Source: a virus. Taken from it: 5,555 nucleotides of DNA. The translations under genes were made by a program, and so were the position numbers. The DNA lies in IMG/VR virus record IMGVR_UViG_3300045988_012393, positions 1 through 5,555 of that record, one strand, 5' to 3'. A model generated the notes under the pieces. It was given only the letters and a program-made list of their open reading frames with translations, was not told the origin of the DNA and did not search any database. This document shows positions 1-5,555 of the stretch, one piece after another (within the stretch, counting starts at the first letter, position 1; each line of letters begins with the position of its first letter).

Positions 1-33
1 AAGAAGATGAGCAAAGCCAAAGGCGTATTTTGA
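1..33 (+). CDS. VP4: 3' end of the replication-initiator gene (last 10 codons KKMSKAKGVF plus TGA), a duplicate of 5479-5511
   Basis: Identical to the end of the 4492-5511 ORF and in the same frame, with TGA at 31-33. It is a partial copy present only because of the wrap-around. Confidence 0.85.
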   Translation, partial: KKMSKAKGVF

Positions 34-77
34 CACTTTGGTGTCACTCAGCCAAGTAACTATCAAGTATAGACTTG
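1..77. repeat. Terminal redundancy: exact copy of 5479-5555 (wrap-around of a circular genome)
   Basis: Base-by-base comparison: aagaagatgagcaaagccaaaggcgtattttgacactttggtgtcactcagccaagtaactatcaagtatagacttg occurs at both window ends. This implies a 5,478-nt circle. Confidence 0.97.
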
Positions 78-95
78 GCTGAGTGTTTTTTATTT
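45..95 (+). terminator. Rho-independent-type terminator downstream of Rep
   Basis: An 11-bp perfect stem pairs 47-57 (ctcagccaagt) with 73-83 (acttggctgag), extendable by a46-t84 and c45-g85. An inner 4-bp stem pairs 60-63 with 69-72 after a 2-nt bulge, leaving a 5-nt loop. The structure is followed by a T-run at 86-91 and ttt at 93-95. A separate 6-bp hairpin (31-36/41-46) contains the Rep stop codon. Confidence 0.75.
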
Positions 96-102
96 CATAT
101 TG

Positions 103-143
103 ACATATGCACGCGCGCACGTAATCGCGCACACGCGCACATG
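103..143. repeat. Two alternating purine/pyrimidine (CG/CA-type) tracts with Z-DNA-forming potential
   Basis: 103-123 (acatatgcacgcgcgcacgta, 21 nt) and 126-143 (cgcgcacacgcgcacatg, 18 nt) alternate R/Y strictly and are separated by 2 nt. CGCGCAC occurs three times (114-120, 126-132, 134-140). Confidence 0.8.
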
Positions 144-185
144 ATATTATTATTATTTTTATTATTTGTTGTAGTCGTAGTAGTA
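144..185. repeat. Pure A/T run followed by trinucleotide-periodic tracts (TTA/TTT then GTA/GTC); putative DNA-unwinding element
   Basis: 144-167 contains only A and T (24 nt), read as tta tta tta ttt tta tta ttt. 171-185 reads gta gtc gta gta gta. The DUE role is inferred only from position next to the iterons and DnaA boxes. Confidence 0.45.
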
Positions 186-190
186 GGGAG

Positions 191-205
191 TGTTGAAATG
201 TTGAA
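191..205 (+). repeat. Iteron pair 1: TGTTGAA at 191-197 and 199-205
   Basis: Direct tandem copies 8 nt apart. The same 7-mer recurs in pairs at 276-290 and 340-355. Confidence 0.8.
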
Positions 206-261
206 TACTATGAATTTTTATCCTTGGAACGATATTTTTTGGATTATTTTAATGTTGATAC

Positions 262-294
262 TTTTGTGGATAACTTGTTGAATTGTTGAAAGTG
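262..294 (+). repeat. Copy A of an imperfect ~33-nt direct repeat (DnaA box plus iteron pair 2 at 276-282 and 284-290)
   Basis: ttttgtggaTaacTtgttgaa-Ttgttgaaagtg aligns with 326-359, with about 4 mismatches and 1 indel. Confidence 0.85.
265..273 (-). promoter_or_regulatory. Perfect consensus DnaA box (TTATCCACA on the minus strand)
   Basis: The + strand reads tgtggataa at 265-273, the exact reverse complement of the 9-mer DnaA box consensus TTATCCACA. Confidence 0.5.
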
Positions 295-302
295 TAGCAA
301 TA

Positions 303-322
303 TGCACAAAACCATTTGTGCA
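303..322. other. 8-bp perfect hairpin/palindrome centred between the two 33-nt repeats
   Basis: tgcacaaa (303-310), loop acca, tttgtgca (315-322). Its core ACAAAACCATTT (306-317) recurs exactly at 552-563. Confidence 0.7.
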
Positions 323-325
323 ACT

Positions 326-359
326 TTTTGTGGAAAACCTGTTGAAAGTGTTGAAAGCG
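326..359 (+). repeat. Copy B of the imperfect ~33-nt direct repeat (DnaA-like box plus iteron pair 3 at 340-346 and 349-355)
   Basis: ttttgtggaAaacCtgttgaaaGtgttgaaagcg. TGTTGAAAG is perfectly tandem at 340-348 and 349-357, followed by a degenerate third unit cgttaaaaa. Confidence 0.85.
329..337 (-). promoter_or_regulatory. DnaA-box-like site (TTTTCCACA, fits the relaxed TTWTNCACA consensus)
   Basis: The + strand reads tgtggaaaa at 329-337, at the equivalent position in repeat copy B. Confidence 0.4.
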
Positions 360-408
360 TTAAAAACTGTGATTAAAGGCAGTCCGGCGAGCGAACCAAA
401 AAAGTCAC

Positions 409-463
409 GCCATGCTCTTCGTACGGCGCACCGCGCCTACCGCATGACATTCAAATGCATGGC
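409..463 (+). other. GC-rich structured element (outer 7-bp helix enclosing an 8-bp bulged hairpin); candidate ssDNA initiation signal or small structured RNA
   Basis: gccatgc (409-415) pairs with gcatggc (457-463). Inside, gta-c-ggcgc (421-429), loop acc, gcgcc-tac (433-440). An alternative helix pairs 404-410 with 442-448 (6 of 7). This is a GC island inside an otherwise AT-rich spacer. Confidence 0.4.
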
Positions 464-489
464 ACAGCTAAACTTTTTTCAAAAACCTC

Positions 490-518
490 TTGACAAACCC
501 TCTTTTTTATGATACAAA
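490..518 (+). promoter_or_regulatory. Candidate sigma70-type promoter for the gene array
   Basis: A perfect TTGACA lies at 490-495, followed by a 17-nt spacer and TACAAA at 513-518, preceded by TG at 510-511 (extended -10 form TGaTACAAA). It sits about 80 nt upstream of the first SD. The -10 lacks the final T. Confidence 0.4.
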
Positions 519-597
519 AAGAATAGTTAAACAGCACAGAAGTGCTATTTTACAAAACCATTTATACAAAATAACTTTTAGAAAGAGGTGAACCGCT

Positions 598-720
598 CTG
601 ACTCTCAAAGAAATTGACGCGCTGTTTAACAACATCCGCAAGATCTTGGCCATGCTGGACAAGATTTATCACATGTTGGAGGAAAAGGACAACAGATTCC
701 AGACCTTCAACGGAGACTGA
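598..720 (+). CDS. Hypothetical 40-aa helical peptide with a non-canonical CTG start
   Basis: The strongest SD in the window (aaagaggtga, 582-591) has CTG at 598 as the only near-cognate codon at correct spacing. The frame reads (M)TLKEIDALFNNIRKILAMLDKIYHMLEEKDNRFQTFNGD, with TGA at 718-720 abutting the next gene's SD. The sequence looks protein-like, unlike the overlapping 614 frame. Confidence 0.35.
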   Translation: MTLKEIDALFNNIRKILAMLDKIYHMLEEKDNRFQTFNGD

Positions 721-730
721 GAGGCTGAAA

Positions 731-952
731 ATGAAAACATGCAACGTAAGAGACCAGACCGATACGAACCTAATGAAGGAATTGACCCAAACCTACAAGG
801 GAATCGAGAGCGCATACAAGCTGCTACGACAGGCCGAAAAGTACGACGACGCAAAATTTTACCTTGACATGATATTCCGCAAAAAAGCAAAAGCAACAGA
901 AATCGAAGTGGAAATCCTCAGAAGGGAGGTCAACCATGGGAAAGAGGAGTAA
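731..952 (+). CDS. Hypothetical protein, 73 aa (no family recognised)
   Basis: ATG at 731 is preceded by GAGG (721-724) at 6-nt spacing. The product is charged and helical-looking: MKTCNVRDQTDTNLMKELTQTYKGIESAYKLLRQAEKYDDAKFYLDMIFRKKAKATEIEVEILRREVNHGKEE. The TTG-614 extension of this ORF looks non-coding. Confidence 0.55.
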   Translation: MKTCNVRDQTDTNLMKELTQTYKGIESAYKLLRQAEKYDDAKFYLDMIFRKKAKATEIEVEILRREVNHGKEE

Positions 953-1055
953 AGTCCGCAAATCCAAGGACGCAAAAATTTACAACAAGACCGCACGAAA
1001 AACCAAGGCCATCAACCTTGGGAGCGGCGCAATGAGAGGGGGAATCCGCCTGTGA
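936..1055 (+). CDS. Small highly basic DNA-binding/packaging protein (phiX174 J / gokushovirus ORF8-VP8 analogue), 39 aa
   Basis: GGGAGG (924-929) lies 6 nt before ATG 936. The product MGKRSKVRKSKDAKIYNKTARKTKAINLGSGAMRGGIRL has 13 K/R in 39 aa. The C-terminal MRGGIRL resembles the ...MRGGIRF ending I recall for chlamydiaphage ORF8. It overlaps the upstream ORF by 17 nt. Confidence 0.75.
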   Translation: MGKRSKVRKSKDAKIYNKTARKTKAINLGSGAMRGGIRL

Positions 1056-1150
1056 GCGCTGTATTCGCAAGCATGACAATGGCATTTCTCGCAGCGGGGT
1101 TCTACCTCGTCATTAACGCAATCAACATCATCAAAGACTGGTTCAAATAA
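1052..1150 (+). CDS. Hypothetical 32-aa hydrophobic (single transmembrane-like) peptide
   Basis: GTG 1052 overlaps the upstream stop as GTGA (1052-1055), and a purine-rich gagaggggga lies at 1034-1043. The product is (M)SAVFASMTMAFLAAGFYLVINAINIIKDWFK. Its stop at 1148-1150 overlaps the SD of the next gene. An alternative ATG at 1073 gives 25 aa. Confidence 0.45.
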   Translation: MSAVFASMTMAFLAAGFYLVINAINIIKDWFK

Positions 1151-1160
1151 GGAGAAAAAC

Positions 1161-1397
1161 ATGAACGTATACGGAATTTTCGATAGCTGTGTGATGGGCT
1201 ACATCACCATCTTCACCGAACGAGAAGACAAAGTGGCGGAGCGAAATTTTAAGATTGCGCTCACCGACGAACACAACATGATGAGCAAGACGCCGAGCGA
1301 CTACCGGCTGGTCAGACTGGCGAAATTCGACGAAAAGACCGGCCTGTTCGAAAACGAAAAGGAGAACATCTTTGATGGCATATCGCTCAGTAAGTAA
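1161..1397 (+). CDS. VP5: VP5-like small non-structural protein (microvirus ORF5 family), 78 aa
   Basis: AAGGAG (1149-1154) lies 6 nt before the ATG. The pattern YGIFDS...Y...F......A.R.F......N.M.K.P.DY.L..L..FDE.TG matches the conserved small gokushovirus protein as I remember it. Confidence 0.7.
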   Translation: MNVYGIFDSCVMGYITIFTEREDKVAERNFKIALTDEHNMMSKTPSDYRLVRLAKFDEKTGLFENEKENIFDGISLSK

Positions 1398-1860
1398 CTG
1401 GCGGCAGACCGCCACAGCAAAGCCGACCGAGGCCGGGGAAAGCGTAAGGCGCACGTACCTCTGGGAACGCAATGAAAAAGGCGAAAAGGTGCTGAGACTC
1501 GACCAGACCATTGACCAGCAAGCCGAGATAGACAGCTACCTCGAAGAAACCAAACTGGAAAACATCATCCGACGATCAAGCATCGACCCGGACATTGCAG
1601 CACGCATCAGGCCAGACATCGGTGGCGGCATCCAAGACTTTACCGAAGCACCGCAGAATCTGGCCGAACTCCAGAACATCATGATCCGAGCAGAGCAAAT
1701 CTGGGACGAGGTGCCGAAAGAAATCAAGCTCAAGTTTGACAACGACGTGGACAAATTCATCTCAAGTTTTGGAACTGTCGAATGGGCCAAAAATCTGGGC
1801 ATCTACCAAGAAAAACAGGTCGAAACCGAAGCAACTGAGGCAACGGAGGCCAAAGAATGA
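1375..1860 (+). CDS. VP3: VP3-like internal scaffolding protein, 161 aa from ATG 1375 (TTG 1372 is an alternative start)
   Basis: AAGGAG (1359-1364) lies upstream. The C-terminal block FTEAPQNLAELQNIMIRAEQIWDEVPKEIKLKFDNDVDKFISSF and the central ...EIDSYLEETKLENIIRR... fit the gokushovirus VP3 scaffold pattern. The stop overlaps the VP1 start as ATGA. Confidence 0.8.
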   Translation: MAYRSVSNWRQTATAKPTEAGESVRRTYLWERNEKGEKVLRLDQTIDQQAEIDSYLEETKLENIIRRSSIDPDIAARIRPDIGGGIQDFTEAPQNLAELQNIMIRAEQIWDEVPKEIKLKFDNDVDKFISSFGTVEWAKNLGIYQEKQVETEATEATEAKE

Positions 1861-3557
1861 ACAGAAACAAAGACGCAGGATTCAATCAGGTACCGCGCCT
1901 GGACATCACGCGAAGTCGATTCAAGCGGAGACAGGACGTCAAATTAACGCTGAACGCAGGACAGCTTATCCCGTTTTACGTGGACGAAGTACTTCCGGGC
2001 GACACCTTCAGCATTGACCAAGCGGCAATTATCCGCATGACGACGCCTATTTTCCCGGTTATGGATAACTGTCACATGGACATTTATTATTTTAATGTCC
2101 CATGTCGAATCCTTTGGAAAAACTTCAAACGGTTTATGGGCGAAAACGATACGGGGCCGTGGGCACAGACTCAGGAATACACCATTCCACAGGTCAAAGT
2201 AACCGGCACCGCAGAAAAGCCGGCACCTTATGAGGGCAGCATCCTTGACTACATGGGCATTCCAACCAAGGTAAGCAAGGGAGCAGACACGGCGTTCACC
2301 GTCAACGCACTGCCCATGCGAGCATATGCTATGATATGGCAGGAGTGGTTCAGAGACCAAAACGTGGATAATCCGGCCATCAACAGCGATGCAGACGCGA
2401 CCGTAAACTATACGGATGATGAAACCAAAGGCATGGACGCAGCAACACCGGATTTGGAATATATTCTTCAGAACGCATACACAGGCGGCAGACCTTTGCC
2501 GGTCAACAAATACCACGACTACTTTACATCAGCGCTGCCGAATCCGCAAAAAGCAGGACAGCCGGTTACAATTCCGCTAGGCGGAAATGCTAGCATTAAA
2601 CCATATGAAAACAACCTTAAAACGTTAAACCCGGATGACATTTTCTTCAGACAAAACAGCAGCAGCGCATCAAACCCATACCCGAAATCGGGTATCCAAT
2701 ATGAAGAAAACATTGGAACCTACACAATATCGGGTCCAACACAACCAACCGGTAGTGATGTAACAACCCATTATCTCATGGCAGACCTTAGCAGCGTAAA
2801 CGCAACGACCATCAACCAACTCCGACAGGCGTTTCAGGTTCAGAAATATTACGAAGAGCTGGCACGAGGCGGCAGCCGCTACCGTGAGATGATCTACTCG
2901 CTTTTCCACACCAAGATAAGCGATAAAACCGTACAGATTCCGGAGTATCTGGGCGGTACGCGTATCACCATCAATATGAGTCAGGTCATCCAGACCAGCG
3001 GCACAACCGCCGAAAGTCCGCAGGGCAACACCGCAGCCGTAAGCGTTACGCCGTACAACGGCAGTATGTTCACGAAGAGCTTTGAAGAGCACGGCTTTGT
3101 TATCGGAGTGTGCTGCATCAGGCATGACCACACGTATCAACAGGGACTCGAAAGGATGTGGAGTCGGAAAACCAATCTGGATTTCTATTACCCGGTCTTC
3201 GCAAATCTGGGAGAGCAAGCAATTTTGAAAAAGGAATTGTATCTGACCGGCACGGAATCCGACGAACAGGCGTTCGGGTATCAGGAGGCGTGGGCAGAAT
3301 ACCGAATGAAGCCGAACAGAATCAGCGGAAAATTCCGGAGCAACGCAACGGGAACGCTGGACAGTTGGCACTACGGCGACAACTACACGACGACGCCAAG
3401 CCTAAGTCAAGCATGGATGAAAGAGGGAGACTCCGAAATTCAGAGGACTCTGGCAGTGGACAACGAACCTCAGTTTATCATGGACACCATCATCGACAAC
3501 ACCAGCGTCAGACCGATGCCCATGTACAGCATTCCGGGACTCGTTGACCATCACTAA
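1857..3557 (+). CDS. VP1: Major capsid protein VP1 (Microviridae F-type jelly roll), 566 aa
   Basis: GGAGG (1845-1849) lies 7 nt upstream. The signature blocks are present: RSRFKRRQDVKLTLNAGQLIPFYVDEVLPGDTF, PIFPVMDN, DYFTSALPNPQK, TINQLRQAFQVQKYYEELARGGSRYREMIYSLF and IPEYLGG. Confidence 0.97.
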   Translation: MNRNKDAGFNQVPRLDITRSRFKRRQDVKLTLNAGQLIPFYVDEVLPGDTFSIDQAAIIRMTTPIFPVMDNCHMDIYYFNVPCRILWKNFKRFMGENDTGPWAQTQEYTIPQVKVTGTAEKPAPYEGSILDYMGIPTKVSKGADTAFTVNALPMRAYAMIWQEWFRDQNVDNPAINSDADATVNYTDDETKGMDAATPDLEYILQNAYTGGRPLPVNKYHDYFTSALPNPQKAGQPVTIPLGGNASIKPYENNLKTLNPDDIFFRQNSSSASNPYPKSGIQYEENIGTYTISGPTQPTGSDVTTHYLMADLSSVNATTINQLRQAFQVQKYYEELARGGSRYREMIYSLFHTKISDKTVQIPEYLGGTRITINMSQVIQTSGTTAESPQGNTAAVSVTPYNGSMFTKSFEEHGFVIGVCCIRHDHTYQQGLERMWSRKTNLDFYYPVFANLGEQAILKKELYLTGTESDEQAFGYQEAWAEYRMKPNRISGKFRSNATGTLDSWHYGDNYTTTPSLSQAWMKEGDSEIQRTLAVDNEPQFIMDTIIDNTSVRPMPMYSIPGLVDHH

Positions 3558-3572
3558 ATGACCATCACTAAA
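3545..3572 (+). repeat. Perfect 14-nt tandem duplication (tgaccatcactaaa x2) spanning the VP1 stop codon
   Basis: 3545-3558 equals 3559-3572. The first copy encodes the last VP1 codons (DHH) plus TAA at 3555-3557. Confidence 0.95.
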
Positions 3573-3585
3573 CAAGAAAGGGGGA

Positions 3586-3613
3586 AGCCCGGGCAAAACC
3601 CCGGGCTAATTTT
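3586..3613 (+). terminator. GC-rich hairpin plus short T-run between VP1 and VP2 (weak terminator/attenuator or translational element)
   Basis: agcccggg (3586-3593), loop caaaac, cccgggct (3600-3607), then aattt directly before ATG 3614. Confidence 0.45.
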
Positions 3614-4486
3614 ATGGGAATACTAGCCACATTCGGACTACCTCTCTTAAAAGCAGCAATACCAAGTCTTGTGGGAGCAGCAGCAAACAAGCTCTTTGGT
3701 ACAAGCGGAAGCTACGGACAGCAGGGGCAAGCTAACAGTCAAAGCAGCGGTTCGAGCTGGTCTCAAGGCACAAGCGACAGTTGGAGCACAAGCAGCAGCG
3801 GCACAAACGACGCTGTAAACAAAAGCATCGCAGCACTTGCAAACCAGCTAAGCCAAGGCAGCATGGCCGGACAGCAAAAATACAATCGAAATTCCATGCT
3901 CATGCAAATGGGCTACAACACGTTCGCTGCAATTCAGCAAGGCGTATACAATCACATCGAGCAGCAAACAGCAATGAGCTACAACACCGCAGAAGCCGCA
4001 AAAAACAGAGCATGGCAAGAGCAAATGAGTAACACGTCTTACCAAAGAGCAGTTGAGGACATGCGAAAAGCTGGCATCAACCCTATCTTAGCATACACAC
4101 AGGGCGGAGCAAGCACACCGAGCGGAGCGCAGGGAACAATCGGAAGCGCAAGTATGGGCATGGCATCCAGTAGCGCGCTGGGAGCAACGGCATTGCCAGG
4201 CATCAAACAGGACGGCAGCTGGAGCAGTCACAGTGAGGCATGGAGTCACGCAGAAAACGCAGCACAGAGCATCCAGCAAGCAATCATGTCGAGCAGCTCA
4301 AGCCCTGTCAGACTCAGGGGAGAAATGGAACGCATTGCAGAAACAGCAGTAGATGGAGCAATAAACCTTAAAGAAAAACTTGCAGCACTGCCGGTATCGG
4401 ACAAGGAAAGACGGAGAACCGCAGAAAACCTTGAAAGAGGACGGCGGCAAACAATCGGAATGGGAACAACCGGAAATTATTGGTAA
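3614..4486 (+). CDS. VP2: Minor capsid / DNA pilot protein VP2, 290 aa
   Basis: The N-terminus is hydrophobic and a Ser/Gly/Gln-rich stretch follows. The conserved core [27 protein letters not shown] is typical of gokushovirus VP2 pilot proteins. The gene sits directly after VP1. Confidence 0.93.
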
Positions 4487-4491
4487 CAAAA

Positions 4492-5511
4492 ATGGGATGC
4501 AACAAGCCGTTAATTCGGTTTTACGTACCTCACGACAGAGAGGCAAGTGGAAGAGTGTATTCACTTGCCTCTTTTAACGAGATACACAAGACCAAAATGA
4601 CATACGAAAACTTAATATACCGCAAAGATGTAATGTTGATACCATGCGGACAGTGTACAGGGTGCAGGCTCCGAAAACGAAAAGACTGGGCCACGCGGAT
4701 GGAGCTAGAAGCATACGGATACGACAAAGAAAGTGTCTGGTTTATCACACTAACATACGACGATGACCATGTACCAACGCAAGACACAAAAACAGGCGAA
4801 ATCTACAAAGGCGGCGTAAACGTCTGGAAAGGCGGCTCAGAGCGTCCAAGAACAACGCAAACACTAAGCGTAGAGGATACACAGCTCTTTATTAAAAGAC
4901 TAAGGAAGGCCGTCAGAGAGCCTCTAAGATACTTTTTAGCAGGAGAGTACGGGGACAACACGGCAAGGCCACACTACCACATGATACTGTATGGGTGGCA
5001 TCCGAACGACTTAAAGCCAATCCACAAGTTATCGAGACATGGACACTACACAAGTGATAAACTGGTCAAAATCTGGGGACAAGGTACAGTTGACATAGCA
5101 CAAGCAACACCAGAAACCTATAATTATGTTGCAGGTTATGTGACCAAAAAGCTATACGGCAACGACAAAAAGCGTTACCAAAAAATGGGTTTAATACCAC
5201 CATTTTGCACAATGAGCCGAAAGCCGGGACTCGGAGACAAATGGTTTCAAAACCATCAAGATCGACTCTGGCAGCAGGGATACATACAGCTTACCAACGG
5301 CAAGAGAGCAGCCATACCGGAATACTACTGGCGAAAACTGGAAGCGGAAAACCCTGAAAAAGCATGGAGAATCAAACAGTATCGGCAGGAAAAAGCCATT
5401 GCGTCCCTAATCGAAAGAAACGCGGAAACAGATAAATCATACGCAGAGCAGCTAAAGGACAAGGAAGCATCCATGTCCAAGAAGATGAGCAAAGCCAAAG
5501 GCGTATTTTGA
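4492..5511 (+). CDS. VP4: Replication initiation protein VP4 (HUH rolling-circle endonuclease, phiX174 A-like), 339 aa from ATG 4492
   Basis: The protein starts MGCNKPL and has a CxxCxxC cluster (PCGQCTGCRLRKRKDW). The three RCR motifs are present: motif 1 FITLTYDD, motif 2 PHYHMILYG (HUH), and motif 3 YVAGYVTKK (YxxxY, two catalytic tyrosines). The track's TTG 4480 start is less likely. The ATG lies 5 nt after the VP2 stop with no clear SD. Confidence 0.96.
   Translation: MGCNKPLIRFYVPHDREASGRVYSLASFNEIHKTKMTYENLIYRKDVMLIPCGQCTGCRLRKRKDWATRMELEAYGYDKESVWFITLTYDDDHVPTQDTKTGEIYKGGVNVWKGGSERPRTTQTLSVEDTQLFIKRLRKAVREPLRYFLAGEYGDNTARPHYHMILYGWHPNDLKPIHKLSRHGHYTSDKLVKIWGQGTVDIAQATPETYNYVAGYVTKKLYGNDKKRYQKMGLIPPFCTMSRKPGLGDKWFQNHQDRLWQQGYIQLTNGKRAAIPEYYWRKLEAENPEKAWRIKQYRQEKAIASLIERNAETDKSYAEQLKDKEASMSKKMSKAKGVF
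4539..4572 (+). other. 11-bp perfect inverted repeat (hairpin, 12-nt loop) inside the 5' end of the Rep gene
   Basis: agaggcaagtg (4539-4549) pairs with cacttgcctct (4562-4572). The loop is gaagagtgtatt, and ttt follows at 4573-4575. Confidence 0.85.
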
Positions 5512-5555
5512 CACTTTGGTGTCACTCAGCCAAGTAACTATCAAGTATAGACTTG
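5479..5555. repeat. Second copy of the 77-nt terminal redundancy (Rep 3' end, stop-codon hairpin, first part of the terminator)
   Basis: Identical to 1-77. Confidence 0.97.

Follow-up and report, generated by a model that had tools for sequence, protein, structure and literature searches.

The closest described counterparts of the element reported here are the four leaky Rho-independent terminators of phiX174, which follow genes J, F, G, and H, yield successively less mRNA, and stabilize the transcripts upstream of them (PMC3335065). The terminator after gene H, T_H, directly precedes gene A, whose ribosome-binding site overlaps the 3' stem of the terminator (bioRxiv 10.64898/2026.07.25.740675). 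For the Gokushovirinae, which are among the most abundant single-stranded DNA (ssDNA) phages of animal guts, almost nothing is known about gene regulation or cis elements; our survey of the literature on gokushovirus origins, stem-loops, hairpins, and terminators found no description of terminators or of an origin. This work concerns a 5,555-nucleotide (nt) viral sequence (IMG/VR record IMGVR_UViG_3300045988_012393, positions 1 to 5,555; the whole stretch is referred to here as the window) and a hairpin that lies inside the beginning of its replication gene, VP4 (Rep). A preliminary description of this DNA had proposed the hairpin as either a rolling-circle origin or an attenuator of Rep. On balance, and with confidence only somewhat above even, we read the hairpin and the T-run that follows it as a leaky Rho-independent (intrinsic) terminator or attenuator acting in the plus-sense transcript, the gokushovirus counterpart of T_H.

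Window positions 1-77 and 5479-5555 are identical, and this 77-nt terminal redundancy shows the window to be one complete circular genome, 5478 nt in length, that of a gokushovirus, a small gut phage of the Gokushovirinae. The window is 84-88% identical to the GenBank entries "Gokushovirus WZ-2015a" and Microviridae of human, monkey, and pig feces. Homologs of its VP4 belong to Pfam PF23343, and VP4 carries the HUH motif PHYHMILY and YVAGYVTKK. The features on which the argument depends are as follows.

4484-4494, plus strand: junction of VP2 and VP4 (VP2 stop TAA 4484-4486, VP4 start ATG 4492-4494, gap of 5 nt)
4492-5511, plus strand: VP4 (Rep) open reading frame (ORF), from ATG 4492 to stop 5511, 339 amino acids
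4537-4551, plus strand: 5' arm of the hairpin (perfect core 4539-4549), codons Arg16-Glu-Ala-Ser-Gly20
4552-4559, plus strand: RNA loop AGAGTGTA, variable in close relatives and of other sequence and length in sister clades
4560-4574, plus strand: 3' arm (perfect core 4562-4572), codons Tyr23 (third position)-Ser-Leu-Ala-Ser-Phe28
4572-4575, plus strand: T-run TTTT at the 3' foot of the stem

The length of 339 amino acids equals that annotated for VP4 in GenBank relatives, in agreement with a start at ATG 4492. A later start at ATG 4597, which would make the hairpin intergenic, was considered and rejected: codons 1-35 are conserved as protein with free synonymous change, a CxxP N-terminal motif is common to distant VP4 proteins, and Met36 is not conserved.

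The arms AGAGGCAAGTG (4539-4549) and CACTTGCCTCT (4562-4572) are 100% complementary and form a perfect 11-base-pair (bp) stem, separated by the 12 nt GAAGAGTGTATT (4550-4561) that constitute the loop of the perfect DNA stem. Both this stem-loop and its extension by A4537-T4574 past G4538.T4573, followed by ttt (T4573-4575), had been noted in the preliminary description and are borne out here. When folded as RNA, the structure is a 15-bp helix (4537-4551/4560-4574) with an 8-nt loop (4552-4559) and G.U pairs at 4538/4573 and 4550/4561. The free energy (dG) of the RNA fold of 4520-4590 is -26.8 kcal/mol (z = -5.7; equaled by 0 of 200 shuffles), that of the DNA fold is -12.9 (z = -4.8), and the hairpin is the second most stable local (50-nt) plus-strand fold in the genome. 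It spans VP4 codons 16-28 (R-E-A-S-G-R-V-Y-S-L-A-S-F) in a frame in which third codon positions pair with third codon positions. The stem begins 51 nt past the VP2 stop and 45 nt past the VP4 AUG, occupying 45-83 nt inside the Rep ORF. The element thus has a stable, G+C-containing stem and a short loop in the transcript sense, and it stands at an end-of-gene position, though inside the next ORF.

A perfect stem of at least 11 bp with a loop of 3-20 nt arose in 4 of 400 (1%) dinucleotide-preserving shuffles of the 5478-nt genome, which agrees with the earlier estimate of "a few percent" for its chance expectation. When the protein was held fixed and codons were redrawn from genome usage, none of 2000 synonymous-codon shuffles folded as well. 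Rare codons contribute to the structure: TCT accounts for 3 of the 103 Ser codons genome-wide and is the rarest of them, yet is invariant at 4570-4572, and GCC and GAG, also used in the hairpin, are minority codons in this genome. A search of the whole window, both strands, with the Rfam 15 covariance models gave 0 matches at E <= 1. The shuffle and codon counts bear on one alternative, namely, that the hairpin has no function and is a chance inverted repeat or a by-product of the conserved peptide SGRVYSLASF and codon bias. The peptide SG(R/Q)VY(S/T/G)L is indeed shared by the clades, and the protein therefore accounts for some of the conservation in the nucleotides. Against such a by-product stand the 1% of shuffled genomes that reach 11 bp, the failure of all synonymous shuffles to match the fold, the rare codons, and, in the comparisons that follow, multiple independent compensatory synonymous events as well as amino acid replacements that restore pairing in other clades. 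We give this alternative almost no credence, and it is already refuted by the covariation.

Six clades were compared. The close, or main, clade was sampled from 7 GenBank genomes and 59 IMG/VR contigs with 85-97% VP4 identity, giving 55 distinct full-length VP4 sequences. The "far" clade (about 58% Rep identity) is represented by 31 distinct sequences, and four further clades (57-61% Rep identity) are known from one contig each (L168-L171). For an intermediate clade with 70% identity (P0003), no contig was on record; an IMG/VR scan re-found known contigs plus 26 far-clade loci (L142-L167), which were later used. A scan of IMG/VR with P0005 gave no match; for P0005, P0006, P0007, and P0015, single contigs were recovered.

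Within the 55 close relatives, 98.4% of the cells of the 15-bp structure are standard pairs. Four pairs have changed on both sides (24 cells), and 0 of 500 column shuffles reach either the observed pairing or the observed covariation score; sliding the 3' partner by 1-3 columns as a control leaves a pairing of only 42-64%. The states of the four covarying pairs are given below.

4542/4569: G-C in 30, A-U in 13, and G.U in 7 sequences; A.C never
4545/4566: G-C in 47, A-U in 2, and A.C in 1
4548/4563: U-A in 34, C-G in 6, and C.A in 10
4551/4560: G-C in 47 and A-U in 3

All four pairs (5' sides 4542, 4545, 4548, and 4551) join third codon positions, and every change is synonymous. Parsimony on a neighbor-joining VP4 tree built without the hairpin requires, for the two sides of each pair, at least 9 and at least 5 changes at 4542/4569, and at least 12 and at least 5 at 4548/4563. 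The loop varies at 4552, 4553, 4554, and 4557 (variants include AGAGTGTA, CGAGTGTA, CAAGTATA, and CGTGTATA, among others); three of these positions are synonymous sites, and conservation of the loop is no greater than the Arg-Val-Tyr codons impose. The preliminary description had suggested looking in relatives for conserved arms with compensatory, including synonymous, changes, and these are what the relatives contain. The structure exists and is selected at the nucleotide level on the plus strand.

A hairpin at this protein position is retained in five sister clades (57-61% Rep identity), with a different 5' arm or register. That of the far clade draws on the same region for its 3' arm (window-equivalent 4562-4574) and on another 5' partner (equivalent 4545-4557), which together form a 13-bp helix with a TATT loop; 94.8% of cells are paired, 0 of 500 shuffles do as well, and slid controls reach 40-52%. 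Here covariation extends to amino acid changes: an Ala-to-Ser replacement (GCC>TCC) accompanies CGG>AGG, and an Arg-to-Gln replacement (CGG>CAG>CAA) turns G.U pairs into Watson-Crick pairs. Each of the four single-contig clades has a 10- to 14-bp hairpin over the SG(R/Q)VY(S/G/T)L codons, with differing stem sequences and loops of 4-5 nt (GTACA, TTAC, and similar). The 3' arm region is thus common to all six clades, and the 5' partner shifts. In six representatives of the other clades, between 0 and 40 of 2000 synonymous shuffles fold as well, a significant result in each. In each of the six clades, a T-run directly adjoins the end of the helix (T4 in the main clade and T5-T7 in four sister clades), as listed below with flanking bases.

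Main clade: TCTTTTAA
Far clade: CGCTTTTCT
L168: ACTTTTTTTAAAG
L169: CGTTTTTTTAAAG
L170: GCGTTTTTGT
L171: GCTTTTTTCAAAG

A 5' arm that moves and a 3' end that is fixed at the T-run correspond to the geometry of an intrinsic terminator rather than to that of a protein-recognized loop. The location of the element is likewise accounted for by gene arrangement. The distance from the VP2 stop to the VP4 ATG is -4 to +15 nt in every clade examined (TAAATG, ATGA, and similar); because the two genes abut or overlap, there is no intergenic room, and a terminator after VP2 must sit inside VP4. At the T-run itself, T4572 is never C, even in the 19 sequences with G4539, where G-C would be stronger, and Phe28 is encoded by TTT in 51 of the 55 relatives, compared with a TTT:TTC ratio of 22:22 genome-wide. 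Both observations fit a requirement for U.

The strand and the molecule can be addressed through G.U pairs, which are frequent in the helix and interchange with Watson-Crick pairs (at 4539/4572 in 18 sequences and at 4542/4569 in 7), while A.C occurs at neither position; pair 4551/4560 covaries above a fixed G.U. Measured against synonymous shuffles, the plus-strand z score of 6 of 8 representatives is larger if G.U is allowed than if it is forbidden, and it exceeds the minus-strand z score in 8 of 8. Tolerance of G.U and the stronger plus-strand outlier favor an RNA of the coding sense. Of the two functions named in the preliminary description, RNA attenuation that keeps Rep levels low is therefore the one favored, by the compensatory synonymous changes, the G.U pairs of the plus strand, the T-run at the 3' foot, and the position after the VP2 stop. 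Programmed frameshifting was also considered and rejected, as the T-run lies 3' of the hairpin and not 5' of it.

These observations also bear on the alternative that the structure acts in packaged ssDNA, as an entry site for complementary-strand synthesis (through the PriA primosome, primase, or RNA polymerase) that might also serve as a terminator, in the manner of phiX174 T_F, which overlaps the PriA-binding ori(-) hairpin (bioRxiv 10.64898/2026.07.25.740675). The segment does fold with the DNA parameters given above and is an outlier relative to synonymous shuffles even when G.U is forbidden, and if the coding strand is the one packaged, strand-specific selection fits either molecule. Many positions of the helix, however, would be G.T, which is weak in DNA; one pair covaries above such a G.T; and RNA-type z scores are consistently the larger. 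Known minus-strand origins, such as those of G4, M13, and phiX174, are longer or multi-hairpin structures, and to our knowledge none requires an adjacent T-run. We regard a role of this kind as unlikely.

To place the hairpin in its genomic context, 63 main-clade and 38 far-clade genomes were scanned in an unbiased manner for stable hairpins followed by T. The terminator finder used for this purpose is permissive (21 sites in the window) and was consequently applied for ranking and for a positional histogram only. Sites recur at only three positions relative to the VP4 start.

-950 to -800: after VP1, in 49 of 49 main-clade and in most far-clade genomes
+50 to +99: the VP4 hairpin, in 63 of 63 main-clade and 34 of 38 far-clade genomes
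+1050 to +1150: after the VP4 stop

The gene order is VP5-VP3-VP1-VP2-VP4, followed by about 560 nt of noncoding DNA plus some small ORFs. The remaining genes of the window and the hairpins that represent the first and third positions in it are as follows.

1161-1397, plus strand: VP5
1372-1860, plus strand: VP3
1857-3557, plus strand: VP1
3586-3607, plus strand: post-VP1 hairpin of 8 GC-rich bp (AGCCCGGG/CCCGGGCT), then AATTTT, between the VP1 stop at 3557 and the VP2 start at 3614
3614-4486, plus strand: VP2
45-85, plus strand: post-VP4 hairpin of 13 bp, then TTTTTT, 12 nt after the VP4 stop

Owing to the terminal redundancy, the window contains two copies of the VP4 stop and of the initial portion of the post-VP4 hairpin. 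A separate, consensus terminator scan requires T at 5 or more of the 8 bases that follow the stem. The homologous hairpin is its top-listed match in L171 and L170, and in L170 the three leading plus-strand matches are the three recurrent positions, a fourth and weaker plus-strand match being intergenic. The same scan flags part of the L168 stem.

Taken as a leaky terminator, the element would operate as follows. Transcription of the structural block (VP5-VP3-VP1-VP2) would continue into VP4. Approximately 50-90 nt past the VP2 stop, the nascent RNA would fold into a helix of 13-15 bp followed by U4 (U5-U7 in sister clades), and some polymerases would release there, such that full-length Rep mRNA would be a minority species and Rep would be kept low. 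The same 3' hairpin would shield the upstream capsid and pilot (VP1-VP2) message from 3' exonucleases. The element would be written into Rep codons 16-28 through third codon positions and rare codons. What the comparison shows is the structure, the selection on it, its strand, its T-run anchor, and its position; termination, and how efficient it would be, we infer.

Several observations weigh against this reading. The U-tract of the window is short (UUUU and then AAC). The consensus scan does not list the window hairpin, in which T makes up only 4 of the 8 bases past the stem, and it misses the homolog in L169. The T-run of the far clade is interrupted in 6 of 31 distinct sequences (Phe to Tyr TAT in 5 and TTC in 1), so that conservation is stricter for the stem than for the tail. 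Pair 4548/4563 tolerates C.A as its intermediate (10 sequences) but never U.G, contrary to a pure RNA model. Should the coding strand be the one packaged, as it is in phiX174, ssDNA and mRNA share one sequence, and a DNA role is inseparable from an RNA role by sequence. A terminator inside an ORF would also give truncated, non-stop Rep messages. Finally, more distant gokushoviruses (30-40% Rep identity; L172-L177) have no consistent element at the VP2-VP4 junction, and generality of the element is accordingly not claimed. In the five of these genomes with that junction, VP2 and VP4 are 110-470 nt apart; in Chp2 (L172), ORF4 is preceded by VP3 and ORF8. Chp2 and the rodent virus Sigmofec have strong hairpin-plus-T sites just upstream of Rep, and the other four distant genomes have nothing convincing.

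Part of this evidence would suit a post-transcriptional RNA element that causes little or no termination and instead lowers or times Rep synthesis, whether as a barrier to 3'-5' exonucleases, as a ribosome brake at VP4, or as a protein site (e.g., for Rep autoregulation). Such an element draws on the same structural and covariation support as a terminator, it would suit a stem stricter than its T-run and a U-tract of 4 nt, and there is a precedent in the phiX174 terminator hairpins, which stabilize upstream mRNA (PMC3335065). On the other hand, the hairpin begins 45 nt past the AUG, too far to occlude initiation, and elongating ribosomes unwind such stems; the T-run anchor in six clades, the moving 5' arm, and the invariant T4572 would be needless for a stability or brake element. 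We consider a post-transcriptional role possible but doubtful.

A more elaborate form of the terminator model makes termination conditional on translation. Judging from geometry, a reinitiating ribosome trailing the polymerase could mask the 5' arm and allow read-through. VP4 would then be translated only via reinitiation at the VP2 stop/VP4 start (TAA-N0-5-ATG or ATGA): a ribosome on codons 16-20 would block termination, an uncoupled polymerase would otherwise stop within 90 nt, and completion of the Rep mRNA would be tied to reinitiation, with the hairpin perhaps reused in ssDNA. The result would be a means of dosage control contained wholly within coding sequence. We offer this translation-gated version tentatively, as one that probably does not hold. 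No alternative antiterminator pairing was found for the hairpin.

Two observations in other genomes touch on the same region. In Chp2 (L172, AJ270057), the strongest hairpin-plus-T site of the fetched part (about 1290-1345; dG -19, tail TTTTTGG) covers the annotated ORF4 start, and the conserved CxxP N-terminal motif (MICAYP) starts 21 codons after that start. This suggests that the ORF4 start is misannotated and that a predicted terminator lies immediately before Rep. In L060 (IMGVR_UViG_3300022758_000056, about 3001-3100), one T has been lost from the T-run (TCTTTAAT), giving a VP4 frameshift at codon 28; the loss may reflect slippage at the run or an error of sequencing, or the genome may be defective.

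The second function named in the preliminary description was a plus-strand rolling-circle origin, at which VP4, an HUH endonuclease, would nick the loop of the extruded hairpin inside its own gene. An HUH Rep recognizes a specific single-stranded motif that is common to related Reps. The hairpin is conserved in a rolling-circle genome and all of its loops contain the Tyr codon TA(C/T), as this proposal would have it; moreover, phiX174 ori(+) lies inside gene A, where synonymous changes are detrimental (bioRxiv 10.64898/2026.07.25.740675). The loop, however, has no conserved motif, with four variable positions in the close clade and RNA loops of 4-8 nt across clades, and the register of the stem shifts between clades. 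The loop sequence that had been likened to the TATT core of known nick sites is TACT in 52 of the 55 distinct relatives. Direct repeats (iterons) were not found in 4400-4720, and copies of the loop motif elsewhere in the genome do not exceed chance. The phiX174-type origin is itself a conserved 30-nt sequence and not a hairpin (bioRxiv 10.64898/2026.07.25.740675). An origin in the VP4 hairpin is not supported by these comparisons and appears very improbable, all the more so as the post-VP4 hairpin is a far better candidate.

The post-VP4 hairpin (45-85; arms 45-57/73-85, repeated at 5515-5555) combines a covarying stem with a loop, TATCAAGTA, that is invariant in all six clades. Examples of its stem are CAGCCAAGTA/TACTTGGCTG, CCGCCAAGTA/TACTTGGCGG, AGCCCAGTACC/GGTACTGGGCT, and AGGCCAGTACC/GGTACTGGCCT. 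It is preceded by (G)GTGTCA in all six clades, and TATCAAGT is present on the plus strand in 107 of 124 loci. Main-clade genomes have a good T-run behind this hairpin; in the far clade the run is poor. The reverse complement of TATCAAGTA contains CTTGATA, a heptamer that lies within the pC194 origin sequence; we take the nick within the origin core to fall at CTTG^ATA. The same heptamer matches phiX174 ori(+) as reconstructed from gene A codons Q107-D115 (bioRxiv 10.64898/2026.07.25.740675). In the gokushovirus hairpin this core is on the noncoding strand, which is puzzling for an origin. The post-VP4 hairpin may be a terminator, an origin, or both; it is the best candidate for a rolling-circle origin in the genome, a lead rather than a demonstration, and a testable one to which the comparison points.

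Other elements were noted in the DNA between VP4 and VP5. A module at about 161-207, (A)TAACTTGTTGTAG-NN-GTAGTAGTAGG-..-TGTTGAAA-GTTGAA, keeps 85-95% conservation between clades with Reps of only 57% identity, and it is also found, almost always unannotated, in 24 GenBank gokushoviruses. It was considered as an origin on account of AACTTG, as in phiX174, and set aside, because L072 and L078/L166 carry it in the opposite orientation with respect to all genes, an arrangement unfavorable to a strand-specific origin. The intergenic region also contains TGTTGAA(A/T) in three tandem pairs (191-205, 275-290, and 338-355), which resemble iterons or repeated -35-type TTGAAA boxes. The segment 251-367 is matched at 83-86% by GenBank relatives that have no further DNA similarity. 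A G+C-rich imperfect palindrome (107-145; CATATGCACGCGCGCACG TAAT CGCGCACACGCGCACATG), in the region of an origin candidate named in the preliminary description (130-165), immediately precedes an AT-rich run. Its minus-strand fold (-31 kcal/mol) is the best local fold on either strand and much better than its plus-strand fold, since its mismatches are all transitions. The third most stable plus-strand local fold (1018-1067; -20.4 kcal/mol) overlaps the end of a small ORF (937-1054) and has no clear T-run.

If the terminator reading is correct, Rep dosage in this clade is regulated by a terminator that lies within the Rep ORF. The clade is a large one, with protein clusters of >1300 and >2500 member sequences among the matches. 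What we regard as new, again with slightly more confidence than doubt, is the proposal of an intrinsic terminator encoded by the N-terminal codons of the very gene whose expression it limits. The locus offers a clean natural case of combined protein and RNA constraint, in which third positions pair together and amino acid replacements re-register the stem elsewhere. In practice, synonymous recoding or codon optimization of VP4 would be predicted to alter Rep expression, and for annotators, a conserved hairpin in a rolling-circle replicon is not always the origin.

Three kinds of known systems provide points of comparison. The VP4 hairpin resembles the origin hairpins of HUH Reps (CRESS-DNA viruses and pMV158-type plasmids) and the 30-nt ori(+) of phiX174 in being a stem-loop in a rolling-circle replicon and, as in phiX174, in lying in the Rep gene; unlike HUH-Rep origins, it has no conserved nick motif in its loop, a shifting register, and no iterons. 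As in intragenic or leader intrinsic attenuators, a hairpin and U-tract come soon after a start codon, and the outcome would depend on a ribosome over the 5' arm, setting the level of the downstream product; here, in contrast, the leader is the real N terminus of Rep and not a dispensable peptide, and ribosome gating is suggested by geometry. The nearest likeness is to T_J, T_F, T_G, and T_H of phiX174 (Bullavirinae), in that a proposed leaky hairpin after structural genes would step down mRNA and stabilize the message upstream. The gokushovirus element belongs to a different subfamily, shares no sequence similarity with those terminators, and is a terminator by prediction from sequence. T_H, the last terminator ahead of gene A (Rep), has itself partly fused with the beginning of that gene. 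The gokushovirus element differs from it in lying inside the Rep ORF, at codons 16-28, under protein and RNA constraint at once, and in having no Rep promoter between itself and the Rep start, such that Rep would be made only by read-through.

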